Positions 10,221 to 21,882 of a stretch of DNA of 40,338 bases are shown here, in pieces; position 1 is the stretch's first letter; the number at the start of each line of letters is the position of its first letter. Made by a program: the position numbers and the translations under genes. The notes under the pieces were generated by a model that had not been told where the DNA came from, made no database searches, and saw only the letters and a program-made list of their open reading frames with translations. Location: positions 1 to 40,338 of the forward strand of contig DATBBI010000502.1 in NCBI GenBank assembly GCA_036271115.1, given 5' to 3'. The stretch is from Trebonia sp. Its GTDB lineage: Bacteria > Actinomycetota > Actinomycetes > Streptosporangiales > Streptosporangiaceae.

Positions 10221-12524
10221 GTGACCGTCCTCGCGGCGCCGGCCCCGGTCCCGCTGCCGCCGTACATCCTGACGGGCCTGGTGCTCGGCCGCTCCATCGT
10301 GGTGGGCGTCGACACGGCGGGGGACGCCGACACGGCGCCGGATGCCCGGTTCCCGGCCGGGTCACAGCTGGCTTTCACGCCGAGCGTCGACACGCTGATC
10401 TTCACCGCGCAGCACGACACGGTCTACCTGGCGGCGGTCGGCGCGGTGATCGACGGCGGCGGCAACCCGGTGACCCCGGACGGCGATCCGCTGTACCTGG
10501 TGGCGAACACCGGGCAGCCGGGCACCGACCAGGCGTGGTGGTGGACGTGCAAGCCGACGATCGAGGGGGCGACGCGCACCGCGTTCCGCGTCGACGTCCC
10601 GGCGGGCGGCACGGTGTACCTGACCGACCAGCAGCCCATTCCGTCGACCCCGGCGGGCGCCACGGTGGTGCGCGGCCCGCAGGGCGACCCTGGCGTGAAC
10701 ACGCCGCCGCCGGGCACGCCGGACGGCGCGGTCGCAACGTCGGCGGGCGGCCTGGTGAGCTGGGCGGGCGGCGCGGGCGGCGTGCAGAGCGCGGTGTCGG
10801 CGATGGCGGCGCGCTCGGCGGGCTTCATCGCCAGCCAGGCGGGGCCGCTGGCGGTGCCCACCTCGGCGTCGTGGCTGCGGCCCGATAGCGACTGGCAGGC
10901 GTCCTACACCGGGCCGGTGGCCGGCGCTTACGCGCTGGTGCTGGGCACAGACGAGCCGTCGGCGCCGTGCCCGGTGACGGTGGCCAACCCGGTCGGGGCG
11001 CTGCCCGACTCGTTCCGGGGCACGGTGTTCGGCGGCCTGGCGATCGCGCCGCGCGCCGGGCTCGTCGTGCAGGCGTACAAGCTGACCGACGTGTTCTACC
11101 CGTTCATCGCGCCGCAGCCGGTGGACGCCGGGACGGGCACGTGGGCGGTTGACCTGTCGTCGGTGGCGCCCGACCAGGCGGGTCAGTGGTTCTTCGGCCT
11201 GCTGGACACCGCGAACGGCAATGCGCAGGTGGGCGAGAAGTGGCCGAGCGCGGCGGCGTTCGCCGACGTCGCGGCCGAGCATTACGTGGTGACCGATGCG
11301 GTCTACCCGGTGTCGTCGCAGACCGCGACGGCGGCCGGGCGGTTCTCGTTCACGCACTCGCTGGCGGGGCGCAAGGGCTACCGGCTGACGCGCCGCTCGA
11401 CCGGGGCGGTGCTGGCCGACGCGCCGCCGCTGTCCGGCGCGGTCCGCTCCTACCTGGTGGCGCCGGGGGAGCCTGGGTTCGGGTCGAATTTCGTCACCCA
11501 GTCCTACGCCTACGACCAGGCGCTGTGCCTGTTCGCGGCGATCGCCCGCGGCGACCGCGCGCAGGCCGGCCAGCTGGTGGCCGGGCTGCTGCGGTTCCAG
11601 ACGGCGGGCGGGGCGTCGGACGGCGGGTTCATCTTCTCGGGCCAGCAGCTCGCGCCGTCGCTCGGCGACCCCGCCTACCGCACCGGGTCGCACGCGATCT
11701 GCACCGACGCGCTGCTGGCCTACATCGGCGCGTTCTGCTCGGCCGAGTTCGCCGGGCAGGCCCCGGTGTACGCGCGCCGTTCGGTGCTGGCGGCGGCGGC
11801 GGGCCGCGCGCTGGCCTACCTGGGCACGATGATGTCGGCGGCGGGCACCACGGCGGGCCTGTACCTGGGCGGGACCGGCGTCTACGACTCGACCAGCGGC
11901 GGCCAGTTCGACCCGGCGCAAGACCTGACGTGGGCGTCGACCGAGCACAACCTGGACGCGTGGCACTGCCTGACGCGGGCCGCGCAGGTCCTCGGCGGCA
12001 CCTGGCAGCAGCAGGCGGACACGCTGGCGGCGGCGATCCACGGCACGCTGTGGGACGCGGTGAACGGCCGCTACTACCAGGGCATGAAAGACACCGGGCC
12101 GGACACCGCCGACCCGCTGGACTGCCACACGTGGGCGGCGATCATGGCGGCGCAGAGCGGCCACCCGGACCGTGCCGTGGCGATCACCGCCCCGGCGGTG
12201 CTGGCGCCCTACCGGCACGTGATGCACGGCGGGGCCGGGTACGCGCCGATCCGGCCGGCCGACCCGCAGTATCCCGGCTCGGTGCCGACGATCTGGGCCG
12301 AGGGCACCATGGCGGCGGCGCTGGCGTTCCTCGCCGTCGGCGACCAGGCCCGGTGGTACTCCACGATCACCGACATGCTGGCGATCCAGGCGCCGGACGG
12401 GTCGTTCCCCTACGTGACCGACACCTCGCCGTCCTACGACTGGACGCCGAGCAAGGCCGTGGTCGGCTGCGCGTGGTCGGTGCTGGCCGCTGCGGGCGGC
12501 GGCATCTGGGGCGTGGCGCCCTAG
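10221..12524 (+). CDS. minor-tail-type protein with C-terminal six-hairpin (alpha/alpha)6 glycosidase-like domain
   Basis: Actinophage minor-tail-like N-terminus ending in GPQGDPG; C-terminal YDQAL, STEHNLD, PLDCHTW, WAEGT and QAPDGSFPY motifs. Confidence 0.7.
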   Translation: MTVLAAPAPVPLPPYILTGLVLGRSIVVGVDTAGDADTAPDARFPAGSQLAFTPSVDTLIFTAQHDTVYLAAVGAVIDGGGNPVTPDGDPLYLVANTGQPGTDQAWWWTCKPTIEGATRTAFRVDVPAGGTVYLTDQQPIPSTPAGATVVRGPQGDPGVNTPPPGTPDGAVATSAGGLVSWAGGAGGVQSAVSAMAARSAGFIASQAGPLAVPTSASWLRPDSDWQASYTGPVAGAYALVLGTDEPSAPCPVTVANPVGALPDSFRGTVFGGLAIAPRAGLVVQAYKLTDVFYPFIAPQPVDAGTGTWAVDLSSVAPDQAGQWFFGLLDTANGNAQVGEKWPSAAAFADVAAEHYVVTDAVYPVSSQTATAAGRFSFTHSLAGRKGYRLTRRSTGAVLADAPPLSGAVRSYLVAPGEPGFGSNFVTQSYAYDQALCLFAAIARGDRAQAGQLVAGLLRFQTAGGASDGGFIFSGQQLAPSLGDPAYRTGSHAICTDALLAYIGAFCSAEFAGQAPVYARRSVLAAAAGRALAYLGTMMSAAGTTAGLYLGGTGVYDSTSGGQFDPAQDLTWASTEHNLDAWHCLTRAAQVLGGTWQQQADTLAAAIHGTLWDAVNGRYYQGMKDTGPDTADPLDCHTWAAIMAAQSGHPDRAVAITAPAVLAPYRHVMHGGAGYAPIRPADPQYPGSVPTIWAEGTMAAALAFLAVGDQARWYSTITDMLAIQAPDGSFPYVTDTSPSYDWTPSKAVVGCAWSVLAAAGGGIWGVAP

Positions 12525-13634: not shown

Positions 13635-13949
13635 ATGCCGACCCGCGCGCCGAGCTCGTGCCGTCCGGGCTGCCCGTACCCGCGTCGGGGCTGCCCGGTT
13701 CACCCGCCCGCGCGCTGGGCCGAGGGGGCGCGCGGCCGCCGGATGCCGCCCGGTTGGCCAGCGACAAGAGCGCGCGTGCTGCACCGCGACGGGTACCGCT
13801 GCCGCCGCTGCGGGTCGCTGGCCAACGAGGTGCACCATGTCGAGCCGGGCAACGAGGACGAGGCCATGATGGTGTCGCTGTGCCCGGACTGCCACCTGGC
13901 GGTCACCCTGGCGCAGGCCGCGGCAGCGCGGGCACTGGCGCGTCCGTGA
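13635..13949 (+). CDS. HNH endonuclease (packaging-associated)
   Basis: W...RARVLHRDGYRCRRCG..ANEVHHV...SLCPDCH; upstream of the terminase genes. Confidence 0.85.
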   Translation: MPTRAPSSCRPGCPYPRRGCPVHPPARWAEGARGRRMPPGWPATRARVLHRDGYRCRRCGSLANEVHHVEPGNEDEAMMVSLCPDCHLAVTLAQAAAARALARP

Positions 13950-14539
13950 CCGCGCCCGCCGTCACGCCGCTCGGGCCGGTCACCGTCATGCCGCTGGCGA
14001 ACCTACGGCCGTACCCGAAGAACGCGCGCCGGATCAACGCCAAGGCCGTCGACCAGACCGCCAAGTCGATCAAGGCGTTCGGCTGGCAGCAGCCCATCGT
14101 CGCCGACCCGGACCTGGTGATCATCGCCGGGCACGTGCGCTGGCAGGCGGCCCGGCAGCTGTCCGAAACGGAGGTGCCGGTGGTGGTGGCGGCGAACCTG
14201 ACGCCCGAGCAGGTCAAGGCGTTCCGCATCGCGGACAACCGCACGCACGATTACACGATGTGGGACTACGCGCTGCTAGCGGCCGAGCTGGACGGCATCG
14301 GCGCCGAGTTCGAGGGGGTGCTGGACCTGGCCGACTGGCAGGAGATCATCGACGGCTACGCGGCCAGCCCGCCCGAAGGAGAGCCGCTGGATGACGACCC
14401 GGAGACGGCCGCGCTGCTGGGCGCCGGGTTCACCCTGACGCTGGTGTTCGCCAGCCGCCGGGAGGCCGAGGAGGCCGGGCCGGTCGTGCTGGCGAAGATT
14501 CCGGGGGTGCTCAATGTCCGCTACGGTCACAAGCACTGA
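13946..14539 (+). CDS. ParB/Srx-like nuclease domain protein
   Basis: LRPYPKNAR...SIKAFGWQQPIV..D.VIIAGHVRWQAA...AFRIADNR. Confidence 0.9.
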   Translation: MTAPAVTPLGPVTVMPLANLRPYPKNARRINAKAVDQTAKSIKAFGWQQPIVADPDLVIIAGHVRWQAARQLSETEVPVVVAANLTPEQVKAFRIADNRTHDYTMWDYALLAAELDGIGAEFEGVLDLADWQEIIDGYAASPPEGEPLDDDPETAALLGAGFTLTLVFASRREAEEAGPVVLAKIPGVLNVRYGHKH

Positions 14540-15530
14540 GGCCCTGGCGGGCATCCTGCCGTGCGTCGTCTCCGGCGGCCGGCCGAGCCTGGACGAGCGG
14601 CGCACCGCCCGGTGGCTCTCGGCCCTGCACGGCGTCACCGCCGACCCGGTATGGGTCGTGCGCGACGACGAGGCGGGGGCGTACGAGGACGACGGGCACG
14701 AGATCGCCGCCTACCCGCGCGCCTGGGCCGAGACCTGGGCGCGCGAGCACTGGACCGACGTCAAGCCGTACGAGGAGGGCGGGTTCCTCGGCGCGTTCCC
14801 CGGCCGGGAATGGGCCGCCCGGCTCGCCGAGCAGCGCGGCTACTGGGCCGTGCTCCAGCTGGACGACAACATCGTCCAGTTCTACGTGTCCACCGCCTAC
14901 GGGGTCGCGGCCCGCACCATGCACGAGCTGGGCGGCCTGGGGATGTACGCCGACATCATCGCCGCCGTGGCCCTGTCGACCAACGCGGCGATGTGCGGCG
15001 CCAACCTGGCGTCGGTCAACCCCGGCGGCGCCCGCATGGTCTTCGCCCGGCGCGGCTTCCCGTACTCGCTTTTCCTCGAGCGGACCGGCCCGCGCCGGAT
15101 GCCGTGGCACGGGCCGAGCGAAGACGACATCATCCAGGCGATCCAGTACGGCGCCAGCGCCGCGCCGGTCACCGCCGGGCTGATCCTGCCGCTGCGCTAC
15201 CAGAAGGACAACACCCGCTACGACGGCGGGCTGCGCCGCTGGTATGACGACAAGCGCAGCGTCGGCCTCCAGCGGATGCACCCGGAGGCGGCCAGGCTGG
15301 TGGTGCGCCGGGCGCGGTCCAACGGGCGCGGCGACCCGCGCGTGTTCCACGCGATGAGCCCCGACGCGATCCGCACGCCGCTCGTCGTGCTCGACCGGGT
15401 GCTGTTCAGCGCGGCCCGCGACAAGACCCTTGACGTCGCGCGGGCCACCGCCGCCGCCGTGCACGCCGACCTGCCCCGCCGCGTCGCCGAGCACGCCAAC
15501 AAGCACAAGGCGGCGCCGAATGGGGCGTAG
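14514..15530 (+). CDS. GT-A fold glycosyltransferase, GREB1/TAGT-like
   Basis: VVSGGRP, VVRDDEAGAY, G..REW, LQLDDNI, EDDI motifs; ParB neighbour. Confidence 0.65.
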   Translation: MSATVTSTEALAGILPCVVSGGRPSLDERRTARWLSALHGVTADPVWVVRDDEAGAYEDDGHEIAAYPRAWAETWAREHWTDVKPYEEGGFLGAFPGREWAARLAEQRGYWAVLQLDDNIVQFYVSTAYGVAARTMHELGGLGMYADIIAAVALSTNAAMCGANLASVNPGGARMVFARRGFPYSLFLERTGPRRMPWHGPSEDDIIQAIQYGASAAPVTAGLILPLRYQKDNTRYDGGLRRWYDDKRSVGLQRMHPEAARLVVRRARSNGRGDPRVFHAMSPDAIRTPLVVLDRVLFSAARDKTLDVARATAAAVHADLPRRVAEHANKHKAAPNGA

Positions 15531-15978
15531 AGGCCCCCAGCCGGTGCCGACCAACCTGCGGCTGCTGCGCGGCGAGTCCCGGCCGTCGCGGATCAACCGC
15601 CAGGAGCCCAAGCCGCGGGAACTGCTGCCCGAGCCCCCGGACTGGCTGAGCGCCTCCGCCGCCGAGGAATGGGCGCGGCTGGTGCCCGACCTGATCGTGA
15701 TGGGCACCGTCAAGGCGGCCGACGCCACGGCGCTGGCGTGCTACTGCGAGGCGGTCGCCCGGTTCCGCGTGGCGACCGAGATCGTCAGCCGGGCCGGGCT
15801 GATGCTGAAGGACCGCGACGGCATCGTGCGGAAGAACCCGGCGGTCGGCATGGCCCGCGACGCCGGGGCCGAGGTGCGCCAGTGGGCGCGCGAGTTCGGC
15901 CTGACCCCGGCCGCCCGCCAGCCGCTCCGCGTGGAGCACTCGACCGCGCCGGGCAGCGCCGAGCGCCTGCTGTCCTAG
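15520..15978 (+). CDS. terS: terminase small subunit, P27 family
   Basis: MGRRGPQPVPTNLRLLRG...PPDWLS..A.EEW...KNPAV...EFGLTPAAR. Confidence 0.92.
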   Translation: MGRRGPQPVPTNLRLLRGESRPSRINRQEPKPRELLPEPPDWLSASAAEEWARLVPDLIVMGTVKAADATALACYCEAVARFRVATEIVSRAGLMLKDRDGIVRKNPAVGMARDAGAEVRQWAREFGLTPAARQPLRVEHSTAPGSAERLLS

Positions 15979-15983
15979 CGCCG

Positions 15984-16056
15984 AATCGGCGGTTTCGGCG
16001 CATAATCGGCGATGAAATCGGCGCCCGGGCCGAATCGGCGTCGGCGCGGCTCGGCA
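15984..16056. repeat. AATCGGCG / TCGGCG direct-repeat cluster
   Basis: AATCGGCG at 15984, 16004, 16016 and 16033, plus further TCGGCG/TCGGCA copies. Confidence 0.6.
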
Positions 16057-16468
16057 CGACCCGGCTTTTCGGGCAAAACCTGGCCGGCATTGCGCGCGGA
16101 CGGGGACCGCCCGCGCCACTTCCGCCGACGAGGGGGTACCCCCCCACGTCGTCGCACGTCGGCCCTCCCTGGCGCCGAGGGCTGTCGGGGGTGTCCGTGC
16201 GGGTGCCTCGGCGCGGACGGCTCACGGGCTCGGCCACAGCTGGCGCCTAGTCGGCCGGGCACCATGGCCGTGATGTGACCATGCTCACCTCGCGTGAACG
16301 GGCACGCATCGCCGATCGCCTTGCCCGCAGTCGTTCGGTCACCGTGTGACATCACTCACCGTGCCCGTTACGAAAAAAGGTGCGGAAAAGCGGTCCAACC
16401 AGCGAAAACGCGACATAGTCTTATGGCGTAAGCACGGCACGGACACGGAACACGGGAGACACGGACAC

Positions 16469-16903
16469 ATGGCACGCACCACCACCACCACGCGTAAGAG
16501 CACGGCCGCCACCACCACCACCACACGTAAGGGGAACGCCACCATGGCCACCACCACCGCACGTAAGAGCACCACCACCACCGCGCGTAAGGGCACGGAA
16601 GTGGCCACGCGTAAGAGCACGGCCGCCGCGCCGGCCGCGCCTACGTCCTACCGTGGCGTGGCCGTGGCCGGCTACACGGTGCGGTGGCCCCATGGTGGCT
16701 ATGACCTCCTTAAGACCACGGACGCCACGGCGGAGCGTGCCGCGTGGCTAGTGCGGTGTAATGACCACGGCACCGTGGGCACCGTGGAGAACACGCGTGC
16801 CGGAGATGCGGCCGGTAGCCGCGCCGGCCGCGCCACGTGGTGCCCGGCATGTAAGCGCACGGCCGCCGCCGCCGCGCGTAGCGCCGCACGGCGCGCGGCG
16901 TAG
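16469..16903 (+). CDS. Thr/Arg/Lys-rich protein with C-terminal Zn-binding domain (WPHGGYDLL, CxxH...CxxC); alternative start at 16544
   Basis: About 39/69 identical to the C-terminus of 18751..19407; the GGGGAACGCCAYCATG leader at 16544 is shared with the next gene. Confidence 0.8.
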   Translation: MARTTTTTRKSTAATTTTTRKGNATMATTTARKSTTTTARKGTEVATRKSTAAAPAAPTSYRGVAVAGYTVRWPHGGYDLLKTTDATAERAAWLVRCNDHGTVGTVENTRAGDAAGSRAGRATWCPACKRTAAAAARSAARRAA

Positions 16904-16936
16904 GGCCGGGGCACGGTAGGGGAGGGGAACGCCATC

Positions 16937-17263
16937 ATGACTACGCCTAGCGGCCCGTGCGTGCGGTGTGAGGCATGCGCGGGGGGTAACCCGTGCGTGC
17001 ACACCGTGAGTGGTGGCGCCATCCCGTTCCGGGAAGTGGTGCGGGAAGTGCGGGAAGCGCTCACCCGTGCGGGCATCACCCGGCCGGGGATGAGTGAGCC
17101 GGCCGCCGCCCGCCTAGCGGCGGCGGCCGTGCGGGAGATGCCGGAGGAGCTGGAGCTGGCGGTAGATGACTACCGCCGCGCGGTCCGCACGCTCACCGTG
17201 GCCACGGAGGTACTTAACTCACTCTCCGCCATGGGCGCGGACATGACCGGTCTAGTGCCGTGA
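16937..17263 (+). CDS. hypothetical protein with N-terminal Cys cluster
   Basis: GGAGG RBS; CVRCEAC...CVH. Confidence 0.7.
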   Translation: MTTPSGPCVRCEACAGGNPCVHTVSGGAIPFREVVREVREALTRAGITRPGMSEPAAARLAAAAVREMPEELELAVDDYRRAVRTLTVATEVLNSLSAMGADMTGLVP

Positions 17264-17349
17264 AAGCGCGCGTCCTAGCCCTCATAGACCGTGCCCTAGT
17301 GGCGCTAACCGGAGGTGAGCTAGAGATCCCGCCGGATCTAGCCCGCTAG
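17260..17349 (+). CDS. 29-aa peptide MKARVLALIDRALVALTGGELEIPPDLAR (not in ORF track)
   Basis: GTGA overlap; ends just before a hairpin. Confidence 0.5.
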   Translation: MKARVLALIDRALVALTGGELEIPPDLAR

Positions 17350-17365
17350 CCCGCACCACCACCTA

Positions 17366-17396
17366 ATGCCCCGGCCGCACCACGCGGCCGGGGCAT
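17366..17396 (+). terminator. GC-rich hairpin terminator
   Basis: ATGCCCCGGCCGC-ACCAC-GCGGCCGGGGCAT perfect 13-bp stem. Confidence 0.6.
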
Positions 17397-17869
17397 AGTG
17401 CTGTCCGGGGCACACGCGTGCCCGGCCGCCGCCGCCGGAGGTGATGCCCGGCCGCCGCGTGCCCCGGCCGCCGGAGGTGATGCCCCGGCCGCCGCCGCGT
17501 GCCCGGCCGCCGTGCCCCGGCCGCCGCCGTGCGGCCATACCGCCTTAGTGACGTGCCCGCGCGCGACTGTGGGTGCCCCCGTAGGCGGTCGCGCCGGGCG
17601 CCCGGCGGTATTCACCCGCGCGGCCCCCCGCGACCGGCTACGGTGCGTTCCGCAGCCGTACAGCGCGTGACCTAGCTCACACGACCGGGTGTTCTAAATC
17701 GGGGATGAACCAGCGGCGCCGAAAGCGTTTCACGGATGTTCCATCCGTCTCATCCGCCTCACCGGAGGTCACCGGGCACCATGTCCGCCCACCCCCCGCC
17801 CGCGCACTGGCGCGGGCCGTCCCTGGCGCCCCGGCCGCACTCGCGGCCGGGGCGCTGCCGATTGCTGGC

Positions 17870-18045
17870 GAGCTGCCGAGCTGCCGAGCTACAAAGCTGC
17901 CGAGCTACAAAGCTGCCAGGCTCGTGGCCCTCCTTTCGGGCCTGGCCCTCCTTTGGCGCCGGGCTGCCGAGCTGCGAAGCTGCCGAGCTGCCGAGCTGCA
18001 ACCCCCCCCAGGTCATGGCCCTCCTTTCGGCCGTGGCCCTCCTTC
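17870..18045. repeat. two blocks of tandem 8-mers (RAGCTRCM), each followed by two TGGCCCTCCTTY motifs
   Basis: 8-mers at 17870-17917 and 17961-18000; 12-mers at 17925, 17943, 18016 and 18034. Confidence 0.85.
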
Positions 18046-18750: not shown

Positions 18751-19407
18751 ATGACCGAGAACACCACCACCACCGAGGCCGAGACCGCGACCGCCGAGAC
18801 GGCCGCGCCAGAGGCGCCCACCGACCTGGACGCGGCGCGCGCGGCGCGGCGGCCCTCATCCCGTGAGCGCGCCCGCGCTGACTCGGCCGCCAAGCAGGCC
18901 GCGGCGAGCGGCGCCAGCGCCAAGCCCGCGCCCACGGCCGCCGCACTGGCCAAGGAGGCGGCGGCCAAGGTCTCGGCGGCGATCGGCGAGGAGCCGCACA
19001 CCGCTACCCTCCGCACGCGGTTCGAGGCGCTGGGCGTCGGCAAGCGGAAGGCGGCGGTCAAGGCGGCGCGGCTGGCGCTGGAGGGCGGGGCCACGCGCGC
19101 GGCCGCATGGAACGCGGCCATGGATGAGGTCGCGCCGAAGGAGGCCGCCGCGCCGAAGGCCCCGGCCAAGCCGAAGGCCGAGCAGAAGTTCCGGGGCGTG
19201 GCCATCCCCGGCTACGTGCTGAAGTGGCCGCACGGCGGCTACGACCTGCTGGCGACGACGGACAAGTCGGCCGACCGGCCGGTGTGGCTGGTGCGGTGTA
19301 ACGCGCACGGGACGACGAAGCCGATCAAGGCGGCCAAGGAGGGTGACGTGCTCGGCACTAACGCGGGGCGGCCCGCGTGGTGCGCCAAGTGCAAGGCCGA
19401 GGCGTAG
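18751..19407 (+). CDS. Ala/Lys-rich protein with C-terminal Zn-binding WPHGGYDLL domain
   Basis: GAAGGA RBS; paralog of 16469..16903; hairpin follows at ~19428-19455. Confidence 0.85.
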   Translation: MTENTTTTEAETATAETAAPEAPTDLDAARAARRPSSRERARADSAAKQAAASGASAKPAPTAAALAKEAAAKVSAAIGEEPHTATLRTRFEALGVGKRKAAVKAARLALEGGATRAAAWNAAMDEVAPKEAAAPKAPAKPKAEQKFRGVAIPGYVLKWPHGGYDLLATTDKSADRPVWLVRCNAHGTTKPIKAAKEGDVLGTNAGRPAWCAKCKAEA

Positions 19408-19915: not shown

Positions 19916-20271
19916 CCGTCCGCTAGGCGCCAGCGGCGGGCGCGGTCCCATTCCGGGGCCGCGCCCGTCATGCTGTGCGGCTGCACGCGGCCCCGTGCGG
20001 GGCCGGGACGGGCCGGGCCGGGTGATTCTCCACGGCGGCCCGGACCGAGCCGCACGCGAGCGTTCACAGCCGCCCGCAGCGTGCCCCGGCCGCCGCGTGC
20101 CCTCCGCGCGGCCCGTAGGCGGCCGTAGGCGGCCGGAGCGGGGCCGGAGCGGGTGCGCGGCCGTGCGGGGCCGGGGATGGCCGGAGCGTGCCGCGCACAG
20201 CCGCCGCGCGGCACCGTGAGACGCCGGTTGACACGGTGAGACACCGCGACACAGCCGGTCATACTGGCCCC

Positions 20272-21882
20272 ATGGCTGACCGGCGCCGATTCCCGCCGTG
20301 CGGGCGGGTCTTCGACGGGCAGACCTGCCTCCGCCGGGGCGCGCACTACTGCGCGCCGCGCGCCGACCACGCGATGGCGTTCTTCACCGAGCTGCTCGTG
20401 CACACCAAAGGCGTGTGGGCCCGGCAGGCGTTCATCCCCGCGGCCTGGGAGGAAGCCGAGGTCATCCGGCCGCTGTTCGGCACCGTCTACTGGGAGCCGG
20501 GCTGGGGCATGTACGTGCGCCAGTACCGCGAGCTGTACCTGAGCACGGGTCGTAAAAACGGAAAGACCGAGCTGATCGCCGGGCTGTCGCTCTACTTCAC
20601 CATCGCCGACGGCGAGGAAGCCGCGGAAATGTACGGCCTAGCGCTCGACAAGGACCAGGCCGGCCTAGCGTTCGCCGCCGCCGCCCGCATGGTGGCGCTG
20701 TCACCGCCGCTGGCCCGCCGCCTGTCGGTGGCGCTCGGCGCCCGGCGCATCTACGACGAGCGCACCGCCTCGTTCTTCACCGTCGCGGCGGGCGACGCGC
20801 TCGGCGCGCTCGGCACCGCGCCGCAGGCCGCCTACATTGACGAGCTGCTCGCCCAGCCGTCCCGCGAGCTTTACGACGCGATCCGCACCGGGTTCGGCAC
20901 CCGCCCCCAGCCGGTGCTCATGCTGGTCACCACCGCCGACAGCGACCCCAGCGGGTTCGCCGCCTCGGAGCGAGCCTGGTCGGAGAAGGTGCTGGAAGAC
21001 CCGAGCCTGGACCCGGCCCGCCTGGTGGTGCTGCACGCCGCGCCCGCAGAGGCGGACTGGACGAAGGAGGAGACCTGGAAGCTGGCCAACCCGGCGCTCG
21101 GCGACTATCTCGACCCGCGCATCCTGGCCGATGAGTGCCGTAAGGCGCAGGCCAACCCGGCGGCGGAGCGGGCGTTCCGCCAGTTCCGGCTTAACCAGCA
21201 GTCACAGGAAGCGGGCCGCGCCATCGCGCTGGACGCGTGGGACCGCTGCGCGCCCGTGACGGAGGACCTGGCCGGCCGCGCCTGCTACGGCGGCCTGGAC
21301 CTCGGATCCACCATCGACCTGGCGTCCTACGCGCTGGACTTCCCCGGCGGCGGCGGCCACGACGTGCTCTACCGGGTGTTCGCGCCCGAGGCGGCGCTGC
21401 CCAAGCTGGACCGGCGCACGGGCGGCAAGGCGACCGCGTGGCGCGAGGCCGGGCTGCTGACCGTGACCGAGGGCGACGTCATCGACTACGAGGCGATCAA
21501 GGCGGCCATGCGCGAAGACGCCGAGCGCTACGAGATCCGCGAGATAGCGTTCGACCGCTGGGGCGCTACCCAGCTGTCGCTCGACCTGCTGGACGAGGGG
21601 TTCCCGCTGTTCCAGACTGGTCAGGGCTTCGCATCGATGTCCGGGCCGACTAAGGAGTTCCTGCGGCTGGTCGCGGCGGGCGCCTACCGGCACGGCGGCA
21701 ACCCGGTCGCGCGCTGGCAGGCGGCCAACCTGATCGTCCGCACCGACCCGAGCGGGAACCAGAAACCCGACCGGGCGCGAAGCGCCGACAAGATCGACTC
21801 GATGGTGGCTGGCATCATGGCTCTTGACCGGGCCATACGGCACGCTGAGCCGCAACGCGACTACGCGGCGGCCGGGTTCTGA
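20272..21882 (+). CDS. terL: terminase large subunit
   Basis: Walker A GRKNGKT, Walker B YIDELL, nuclease GLDLG, DRWGA, KIDSMVA. Confidence 0.97.
   Translation: MADRRRFPPCGRVFDGQTCLRRGAHYCAPRADHAMAFFTELLVHTKGVWARQAFIPAAWEEAEVIRPLFGTVYWEPGWGMYVRQYRELYLSTGRKNGKTELIAGLSLYFTIADGEEAAEMYGLALDKDQAGLAFAAAARMVALSPPLARRLSVALGARRIYDERTASFFTVAAGDALGALGTAPQAAYIDELLAQPSRELYDAIRTGFGTRPQPVLMLVTTADSDPSGFAASERAWSEKVLEDPSLDPARLVVLHAAPAEADWTKEETWKLANPALGDYLDPRILADECRKAQANPAAERAFRQFRLNQQSQEAGRAIALDAWDRCAPVTEDLAGRACYGGLDLGSTIDLASYALDFPGGGGHDVLYRVFAPEAALPKLDRRTGGKATAWREAGLLTVTEGDVIDYEAIKAAMREDAERYEIREIAFDRWGATQLSLDLLDEGFPLFQTGQGFASMSGPTKEFLRLVAAGAYRHGGNPVARWQAANLIVRTDPSGNQKPDRARSADKIDSMVAGIMALDRAIRHAEPQRDYAAAGF

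Follow-up and report, generated by a model that had tools for sequence, protein, structure and literature searches.

A three-gene island purged of short DNA words beside the cos site of a temperate phage genome

The phage genome, its cos end, and the genes of the island

The DNA analyzed here (40,338 nucleotides; hereafter, the window) is the complete genome of a temperate cos phage; its two ends share a 141-base overlap, by which it closes into a circle. Its genes code for a serine integrase, RecE/T, RusA, a replication initiator, an HNH protein, a ParB_N protein, a TAGT-family glycosyltransferase, both terminase subunits (terS and terL), and siphophage-type structural proteins; a 767-aa tail-fiber-like gene (10221–12524) lies among the replication genes, remote from the tail module. 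Binning is no proof of the host, which we infer from the GC content and the relatives to be an actinobacterium. Between terS and terL sits a 1.15-kb island from which short DNA words have been purged. The features of this region are as follows.

13946–14539, forward strand: ParB_N protein (PF02195, 27.7 bits, cut-off 26.3)
14514–15530, forward strand: TAGT-family glycosyltransferase, a candidate DNA modifier (PF20691, E 1e-13, 52 bits, cut-off 27.5)
15520–15978, forward strand: terminase small subunit gene terS (P27 type), pointing at cos, from profile searches
15980–16100, reverse strand: short repeats and T-tracts between terS and cos, from the sequence
16101–16109, reverse strand: cos site with a 9-nt cohesive end, likely a 3′ overhang
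16132–16145, no strand: palindrome of a G-run and a C-run, 22 nt from cos
16414–17563, no strand: purged island, three genes, 1.15 kb, defined by triplet counts, a gap scan, shuffles, and simulations
16416–16421, forward strand: −10-like hexamer TANNNT, found by eye about 3 bases after the last CGA
16469–16903, forward strand: gene 1, a Thr/Arg/Lys/Ala-rich basic tail and an 85-aa domain, no Gln
16937–17263, forward strand: gene 2, an orphan of 108 aa, no Gln; a search matched only gene 2 itself
17260–17349, forward strand: gene 3, a Leu-rich peptide of 29 aa with five CTA codons
17366–17396, forward strand: terminator-like 13-bp GC hairpin after gene 3, lacking a T-tail, from the sequence
18751–19407, forward strand: paralog of gene 1, 55% identical in the domain, 2.3 kb away
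20272–21882, forward strand: terminase large subunit gene terL, from profile searches

We assign cos to 16101–16109 because of a hole in the contigs of X1 (a sequencing run, possibly of the source sample), a match to the start of L023 and L025, and a neighboring G/C element that recurs near the ends of other records. The X1 contigs (depth about 21) end at 16100 and resume at 16110; this 9-nt hole alone proves nothing, and the other X1 junctions overlap in five of the eight listed pieces (by 27–30 nt four times and by 6 nt once). A GC hairpin at 17799–17816 marks an X1 contig break with an overlap of 6 bases only. The minus strand at 16101–16109 matches the element that precedes the start base common to contigs L023 and L025, and the G-run/C-run element stands 20–26 nt from one end of the near-complete records G061, G062, and G067. 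A fixed end, a short unread overhang, and conserved flanks, all found here, are the marks of the 3′-overhang cos sites of phages with HNH and P27-type terminases. The stretch at 15980–16100 is presumably the terminase-binding side, by analogy with lambda cosB. The whole cos region (15980–16145) is inverted and follows terS; in L007, L024, and L032 its place is upstream of ParB, and the genome of this phage would be packaged in the direction opposite to that of its relatives.

The island spans 0.3–1.45 kb from cos, and the 302 bases that separate the two contain 18 CGA/TCG and 6 CAG/CTG. Its left edge coincides not with cos itself but with the hexamer at 16416–16421, which we take to be promoter-like from its resemblance to the −10 consensus; a scan of the region for σ70 consensus promoters and terminators returned none, the hexamer included. 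Just past the island, at 17862–18043, a 91-base repeat occurs twice and is rich in CGA and CAG/CTG. The 356 non-coding bases before terL (19916–20271) hold repeats like those at the 3′ end of the island and only 3 CGA/TCG.

Within the domain of gene 1, a C, an H, and two further C residues are invariant in 20 aligned sequences and form a predicted Zn site. The domain was modeled with a pLDDT of 95 and is predicted to define a new Zn-binding-like family, which has about 200 representatives when clustered at 50% identity. Gene 1 had no match in Pfam, PHROGs, or PDB sequences; its fold had none by Foldseek against PDB or viral structures at E ≤ 0.001, with a best VIA Z of 4.3 and ESM Atlas scores under 0.9. 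The family was absent from 60 relatives, gave one marginal hit only (E 8e-4) in 400 genomes of the order, and had no homolog in the cultured phage collection. Its closest homologs that also lack Gln are P0001, P0002, P0004, and P0008, of which P0001, P0002, and P0008 lie on short contigs. The paralog at 18751–19407 serves as an internal control with normal word use: it contains 30 CGA/TCG, 12 CAA/TTG, and 14 CAG/CTG, as compared with 34, 12, and 15 after shuffling.

Upstream of the island, the ParB_N gene adjoins the TAGT gene, whose DDN motif is invariant in seven of seven aligned sequences; the glycosyltransferase had no PDB sequence match, and its single-sequence structure prediction (pLDDT 33.5) was unusable. 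No TET/JBP or C5-methyltransferase that might supply its substrate was found in this phage, in which several ORFs are unannotated; the TET search was positive in no control genome either, and G000, the assembly, is 53% complete.

Word loss in the island

The first-pass annotation had described, from a base-by-base reading, an island free of CGA, TCG, CAA, TTG, and CAG in DNA of undiminished GC content, and counting bore this out. Between the flanking CGA triplets at 16411 and 17564, CGA/TCG occurs 0 times where the remainder of the window predicts 60.2, CAA/TTG 0 times against 13.5, and CAG/CTG three times against 45.0, all three being CTG (at 17150, 17156, and 17401). GC content is 0.723 in the island and 0.724 in the window. 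Elsewhere the words are as abundant as had been claimed: in 33 other non-overlapping segments of 1,150 bases, the medians for CGA/TCG, CAA/TTG, and CAG/CTG are 63, 14, and 44 and the minima 37, 4, and 29, and values for the rest of the genome are normal (CGA 1.45, CAG 1.08, CAA 0.85). In G000 (502 contigs, 3.56 Mb) the island is the longest gap between CGA/TCG triplets, at 1,153 bases, and the runner-up measures 390. Expressed in mean spacings, it is also the longest GC-neutral triplet gap among 226 loci (58.6, followed by 28.1 in the relative L031), host contigs reaching at most 21.8.

Low complexity was considered as a cause and rejected. In 500 simulations from the island's own dinucleotides the three word classes averaged 28.8, 11.5, and 36.2, with minima of 15, 3, and 21, and when the repeats were cut out (leaving 16641–17400) the counts were 0, 0, and 2 against 42, 9, and 29. 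The depletion lies outside the range of other segments of this size and persists with the repeats removed, and the loss is real and far beyond chance. An assembly artefact was likewise ruled out: the X1 contigs show no difference from the island, and X2, from another study, matches 16259–16566. Nor is this an ordinary horizontally acquired island by composition, GC being unshifted and only 3 of 32 triplet pairs falling below 0.3 of expectation; CCA, GCA, GAG, and CCG are not reduced. Tolerance of CAG in the context CAGC was not significant because half of all CAG precede C anyway, and avoidance of HNH nick sites was discarded, the cos cut contexts being CCG.

The loss extends to all parts of the island. 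Its 304 non-coding bases contain 0, 0, and 1 of the three word classes against 17, 4, and 12, and the GC-rich repeats that run from the hairpin to 17563 are likewise purged. In the three genes, observed counts are 0, 0, and 2, as compared with 39.6, 8.1, and 20.3 in synonymous shuffles (n = 500). Resolved by strand, these genes contain CGA 0 times against 26, TCG 0 against 13, and CTG 2 against 16; TTG taken alone is uninformative (0.7 expected). None of their 281 codons specifies Gln (P ~ 8e-5), and the five CTA codons reported for the 29-aa peptide are indeed there. Seven of the eight CTA codons of the island precede a codon that starts with G, where any of CTG, CTC, and CTT would give rise to a banned word, and none of the seven CTC or CTT codons stands in that position. 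TAA/TTA is enriched 7.9-fold and CTA/TAG 3.9-fold; T is favored in codons before AA or AG, and before GA the replacement is mostly G, not T. From the loss in non-coding DNA and on both strands, from the codon-shuffled nulls, and from the forced CTA codons, we conclude, as had been argued from the letters, that the constraint acts on duplex DNA and not on translation.

Recurrence in related phages

As the first-pass annotation had suggested, we looked for the same depletion in related phages, collecting loci by means of gene 1, TAGT, terS, and a ribosome-site motif. The same kind of loss recurs across lineages, with other words. Measured against a junction-aware null, strong synonymous word loss (minimum z ≤ −4.3, a cut-off set after seeing the data) was present in 12 of 20 gene-1 loci, which as related loci are not independent, and in 3 of 84 control genes, one of these three being the second island gene of L056. 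The 20 loci exclude near-duplicates and the short or broken L015–L018. The weakest of the 12 concern CC/CCC (L203, L209, L210, and L211) and AT (L230), and strong loss is absent from 8 of the 20 (L005, L006, L012, and L240 among them). A further class, GGA/CC in L007, L004, L205, and L215, had come from an independent-codon null and was dropped because control genes reached z −7.1 under that null; its junction-aware z is only −2.9 to −3.7. Long gaps in L097, L145, L136, and L090 proved to be AT-rich islands rather than GC-neutral word loss.

The missing word differs by lineage (CGA+CAG, CG, CA/TG, or CC). In L031, 1.13 kb between terS and terL lack CGA/TCG and have almost no CAG/CTG, and CAA is raised; the clean gene there (CGA/TCG 2 vs 36, CAG/CTG 2 vs 13) can be aligned with the unpurged paralog of this phage along 140 aa, which include the helical domain. 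Judged by this alignment, the two are orthologs, and cleanliness follows position. CG is lost in the clade of L020, L023, L026, L032, and L033 (for example, 31 vs 107 in 1.2 kb), a loss that follows the gene-1 clade (90/96 support) across differing gene neighborhoods. CA/TG is lost in L027 and in L056, the latter found through TAGT, blind to gene 1, and depleted in the same slot (28 vs 87). The CG-avoiding clade gains CA/TG; the CA-avoiding relatives gain CG and GA, not TA. In L031, L023, L056, and L027 a mild shortage of the island word is seen throughout the locus as well.

In five of six near-complete genomes the most depleted segment overlaps the gene-1 unit (one of these is a tie with weak codon support). 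The islands lie 3.5–4.7 kb from the G/C-element end in G062 and, from the opposite, terS-side end, 2.6–3.8 kb in G067 and 3.0–4.2 kb in L023; what they have in common is the unit around gene 1, not the side of cos. Islands are absent from cultured phages and from most loci that have TAGT and lack gene 1.

Several observations lie beside this pattern. Upstream of gene 1 in L027, L031, L056, L007, and L020, a common purine-rich ribosome-site motif precedes several genes of the unit, and a promoter-like stretch lies upstream. In G466, a complete 46-kb phage (L138), 695 bases (11450–12145) lack CAG/CTG/CTC/GAG, the next gap being 175; the stretch covers a leftward gene with a basic tail and two CxxC motifs that profile comparison does not relate to gene 1. 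Stretches poor in CGC/CGA also lie upstream of HNH and cos in two phages that lack gene 1 (L262, 4151–5350; L255, 3551–4950). G066 (L072–L076; 94.6 kb, ParB and TAGT, 74% GC) has CGA/TCG reduced to roughly a fifth of the normal level and low CAA/TTG over its whole record, a pattern of which L058 shows a milder version.

Gene-1 phages carry ParB together with TAGT, a C5-methyltransferase, or TET/JBP beside terS. In L240 (664–4110) the genes after terS encode ParB, a TET/JBP-like protein, ADDT, and an Asp/Asn hydroxylase, a cassette resembling those for T hypermodification. Modification genes are usual beside terS without gene 1 too (22 of 41 loci, with 68 of 119 candidate ORFs scanned), and adjacency of the cassette therefore counts for little. 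The ratio of observed to expected CGA falls short of 1 in 3 of the 16 loci of the TAGT clade of this phage and in 0 of 53 terS controls (Fisher p 0.011, post hoc). The missing word and the TAGT tree do not match: CA/TG is missing in two distant clades, and CG and CA in sisters.

Explanations and known systems

The observations to be accounted for are a purge of duplex DNA beside cos, its recurrence with lineage-specific words, and the neighboring ParB and TAGT genes. The explanation that we favor, tentatively and at somewhat less than an even chance, is one that the first-pass annotation had held in reserve, namely that the segment avoids the phage's own modification: the island would be an early transcription unit kept free of a predicted DNA modification that is directed to 2–3-base motifs and is probably phage-made. 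A near-total ban on a 2–3-base word calls for an agent acting at nearly every copy, and the post-replicative modifiers of phages fit. Virion DNA would be chemically marked at short words, most likely by ParB and the TAGT glycosyltransferase; the mark would hinder transcription, and the mark-free unit could be read by host RNA polymerase before the marked genome is copied. The island is likely the first-transcribed unit of the phage, its promoter-like edge and strong ribosome sites suggesting an immediate-early class, and gene 1 may help to start infection. The cassette and the inverted cos were perhaps imported from a lineage whose enzyme targets CGA/CAA/CAG, an import that we suspect because the rest of the genome is not low in these words.

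A phage-made mark is favored by the specificities of known modifiers, the cassettes beside terS, the low CGA in the TAGT clade, the shortage of CGA and CAA along all 94.6 kb of G066, and the mild loss across four relatives, which is as a genome-wide mark would cause. We also count in its favor the left edge at the hexamer and not at cos, the cleanliness that follows position, and the recurrence around gene 1. Set against it are the ordinary frequencies of the words outside the island in this genome, the failure of the word to track the TAGT tree, and the predicted substrate-making enzyme (TET/JBP or C5-methyltransferase), which the search of this phage did not find. L006 has ParB, TAGT, and gene 1 and yet no island, strong loss is missing in 8 of the 20 loci, and neither cultured phages nor most TAGT loci without gene 1 have an island. 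A temperate phage, besides, must use this same incoming DNA to express its integrase and its replication genes. Broadened to many actinobacterial cos phages, the proposal would be that virions carry a bulky mark at a 2–3-base word, that one bootstrap operon is immune, that the missing words give the modification specificity, and that the Zn-like family opens the marked genome, with ParB-activated TAGT and no dioxygenase in the present case; we consider this broader version possible but doubtful.

A hypothetical host agent of low specificity (a DarT-type toxin, a silencer, or a secreted intercalator) that stalls transcription at the words, so that an early unit of counter-measures stays free of them and the word reflects the host lineage, is unlikely in our estimation, though several relatives speak for it. 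CA/TG is lost in both L027 and L056 despite very different TAGT proteins, the CG loss follows the gene-1 clade from one neighborhood to another, and G466, without the gene 1 family, has a similar word-free stretch over a basic-tail Cys-finger gene. Intercalators also restrict transcription of T5-like phages to pre-early genes (10.64898/2026.01.13.699316). The host, however, would need to protect itself at a 2–3-base word in DNA of 71% GC. Small molecules have loose DNA sequence preferences, too loose for 0 of 60.

We find it rather improbable that the island is simply a relic, its cassette and inverted cos having come from a donor that avoided the words genome-wide, with no present function for the clean zone. 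The inverted and displaced cos, the normal words elsewhere, the second and unpurged copy of gene 1, the Gln-free homologs on short contigs, and the genome-wide CGA/CAA loss of G066, from a related niche, would all suit such an origin. But 0 of 60 is far below the level of G066, GC is unchanged, and in L031, L023, L056, and G062 word loss is far stronger in the unit than in the genome around it, so that local selection would be needed anyway.

The first-pass annotation had itself preferred stealth toward restriction: first-injected DNA purged of the cores of type I/IIG/III or BREX sites, allowing timely expression of anti-restriction genes. Part of that model has held, in that the constraint is at the DNA level, the island lies beside a genome end and looks early, and relatives are depleted. 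The end that it adjoins, at 0.3–1.45 kb, is probably the one packaged last (by analogy with lambda), and we liken CGA, CAA, and CAG to type I half-sites. Early regions of Murciavirus, T5, and T7 avoid sites too, as PMC12455610 describes. The restriction or BREX cores are the part that we now judge quite improbable. The words fill the terminal 302 bases, which would enter even earlier, and islands occur on either side of cos (in G067 and L023, 2.6–4.2 kb from the opposite end), so that stealth of first-injected DNA fits poorly. Moreover, CG, the word avoided by one group of relatives, offers no adenine to type I/III/BREX methylation, there is no reduction of CCA, GCA, and GAG, which are common half-sites as well, and selection per site would be weak because each triplet seldom belongs to a full site.

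Cytosine deamination in a highly transcribed unit could also have erased words by local mutational pressure. The missing set consists of the C-versions of the three stop codons, TAA/TTA and CTA/TAG are enriched, T is favored before AA and AG codons, and the CG clade gains CA/TG. In relatives the missing words are other ones. We hold deamination to be very improbable: relatives that avoid CA gain CG and GA and no TA, G mostly replaces before GA codons, seven of eight CTA are forced by the bans, and the loss is strand-symmetric and complete. Least probable of all is that the gene-1 protein, with its basic tail and predicted Zn domain, binds or blocks DNA at a 2–3-base word (for host shut-off or silencing) and that its own unit lacks the word, for although the island is centered on gene 1 and the word partly follows the gene-1 tree, the rest of the genome is full of the words, and the L031 gene and the unpurged paralog are orthologs in opposite states.

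If the missing words mark the target of a phage enzyme (or of a host factor), the specificity of DNA modifiers of uncultured phages would be readable from sequence alone, and genome modification would be seen to cost phages the recoding of a single start-up operon, even to the point of dropping an amino acid. The island also points to a new early protein family.

Among known systems, local motif avoidance occurs in early-injected phage DNA (the first-step-transfer region of T5, T7, and Murciavirus; PMC12455610) and, as avoidance of restriction sites, in plasmid leading regions (10.1101/2025.04.03.647016). Like these regions, the island combines motif loss near a fixed physical genome end (cos at 16101–16109) with small, probably early genes of no assigned function. 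Unlike them, it loses whole 2–3-base words almost completely, and not 4–8-base or bipartite sites missing from the very end onward; its zone begins 300 bp in from the end, at a promoter-like site, with words present before it, and the islands of relatives lie on either side of cos. Moreover, this is a temperate cos genome of siphophage type with no known staged injection. Our literature search, for which supplements and subscription papers were outside the scope, yielded no account of phage transcription units free of particular words.

Hypermodification by ParB-dependent 5mYOX/TET and TAGT glycosyltransferase systems has specificities such as GpC, NTC, and NTG and involves activation by ParB, as set out in the accessible part of PMC13229309, which does not mention motif-free transcription units. 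The present phage resembles such systems in having a ParB_N and a modifier gene beside the terminase and in the 2–3-base size of its word. It has two of four marks of the system (the TAGT domain and the adjacent ParB_N gene) and differs in that no dioxygenase or methyltransferase was found in it. The genome of Gingerbug is circularly permuted, and its modification is not commented on (PMC9670888).

Finally, cluster E mycobacteriophages have an unexplained, odd tetranucleotide usage in their last 5 kb, for which the authors consider horizontal transfer (PMC4841201). In Bask21 we note a leftward right-end operon (69.4–73.8 kb; L071, 29400–33750) that after GC correction is low in CCC (77 vs 143), CGCC (23 vs 67), CAGG (14 vs 48), and CGA (133 vs 203). 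This terminal operon is like the island in having its own word usage and unlike it in that the loss is partial, extends over 4.3 kb, goes with a lower GC content, and involves no gene-1 homolog. The explanation favored here offers a testable reading for this unexplained terminal region of cultured phages.
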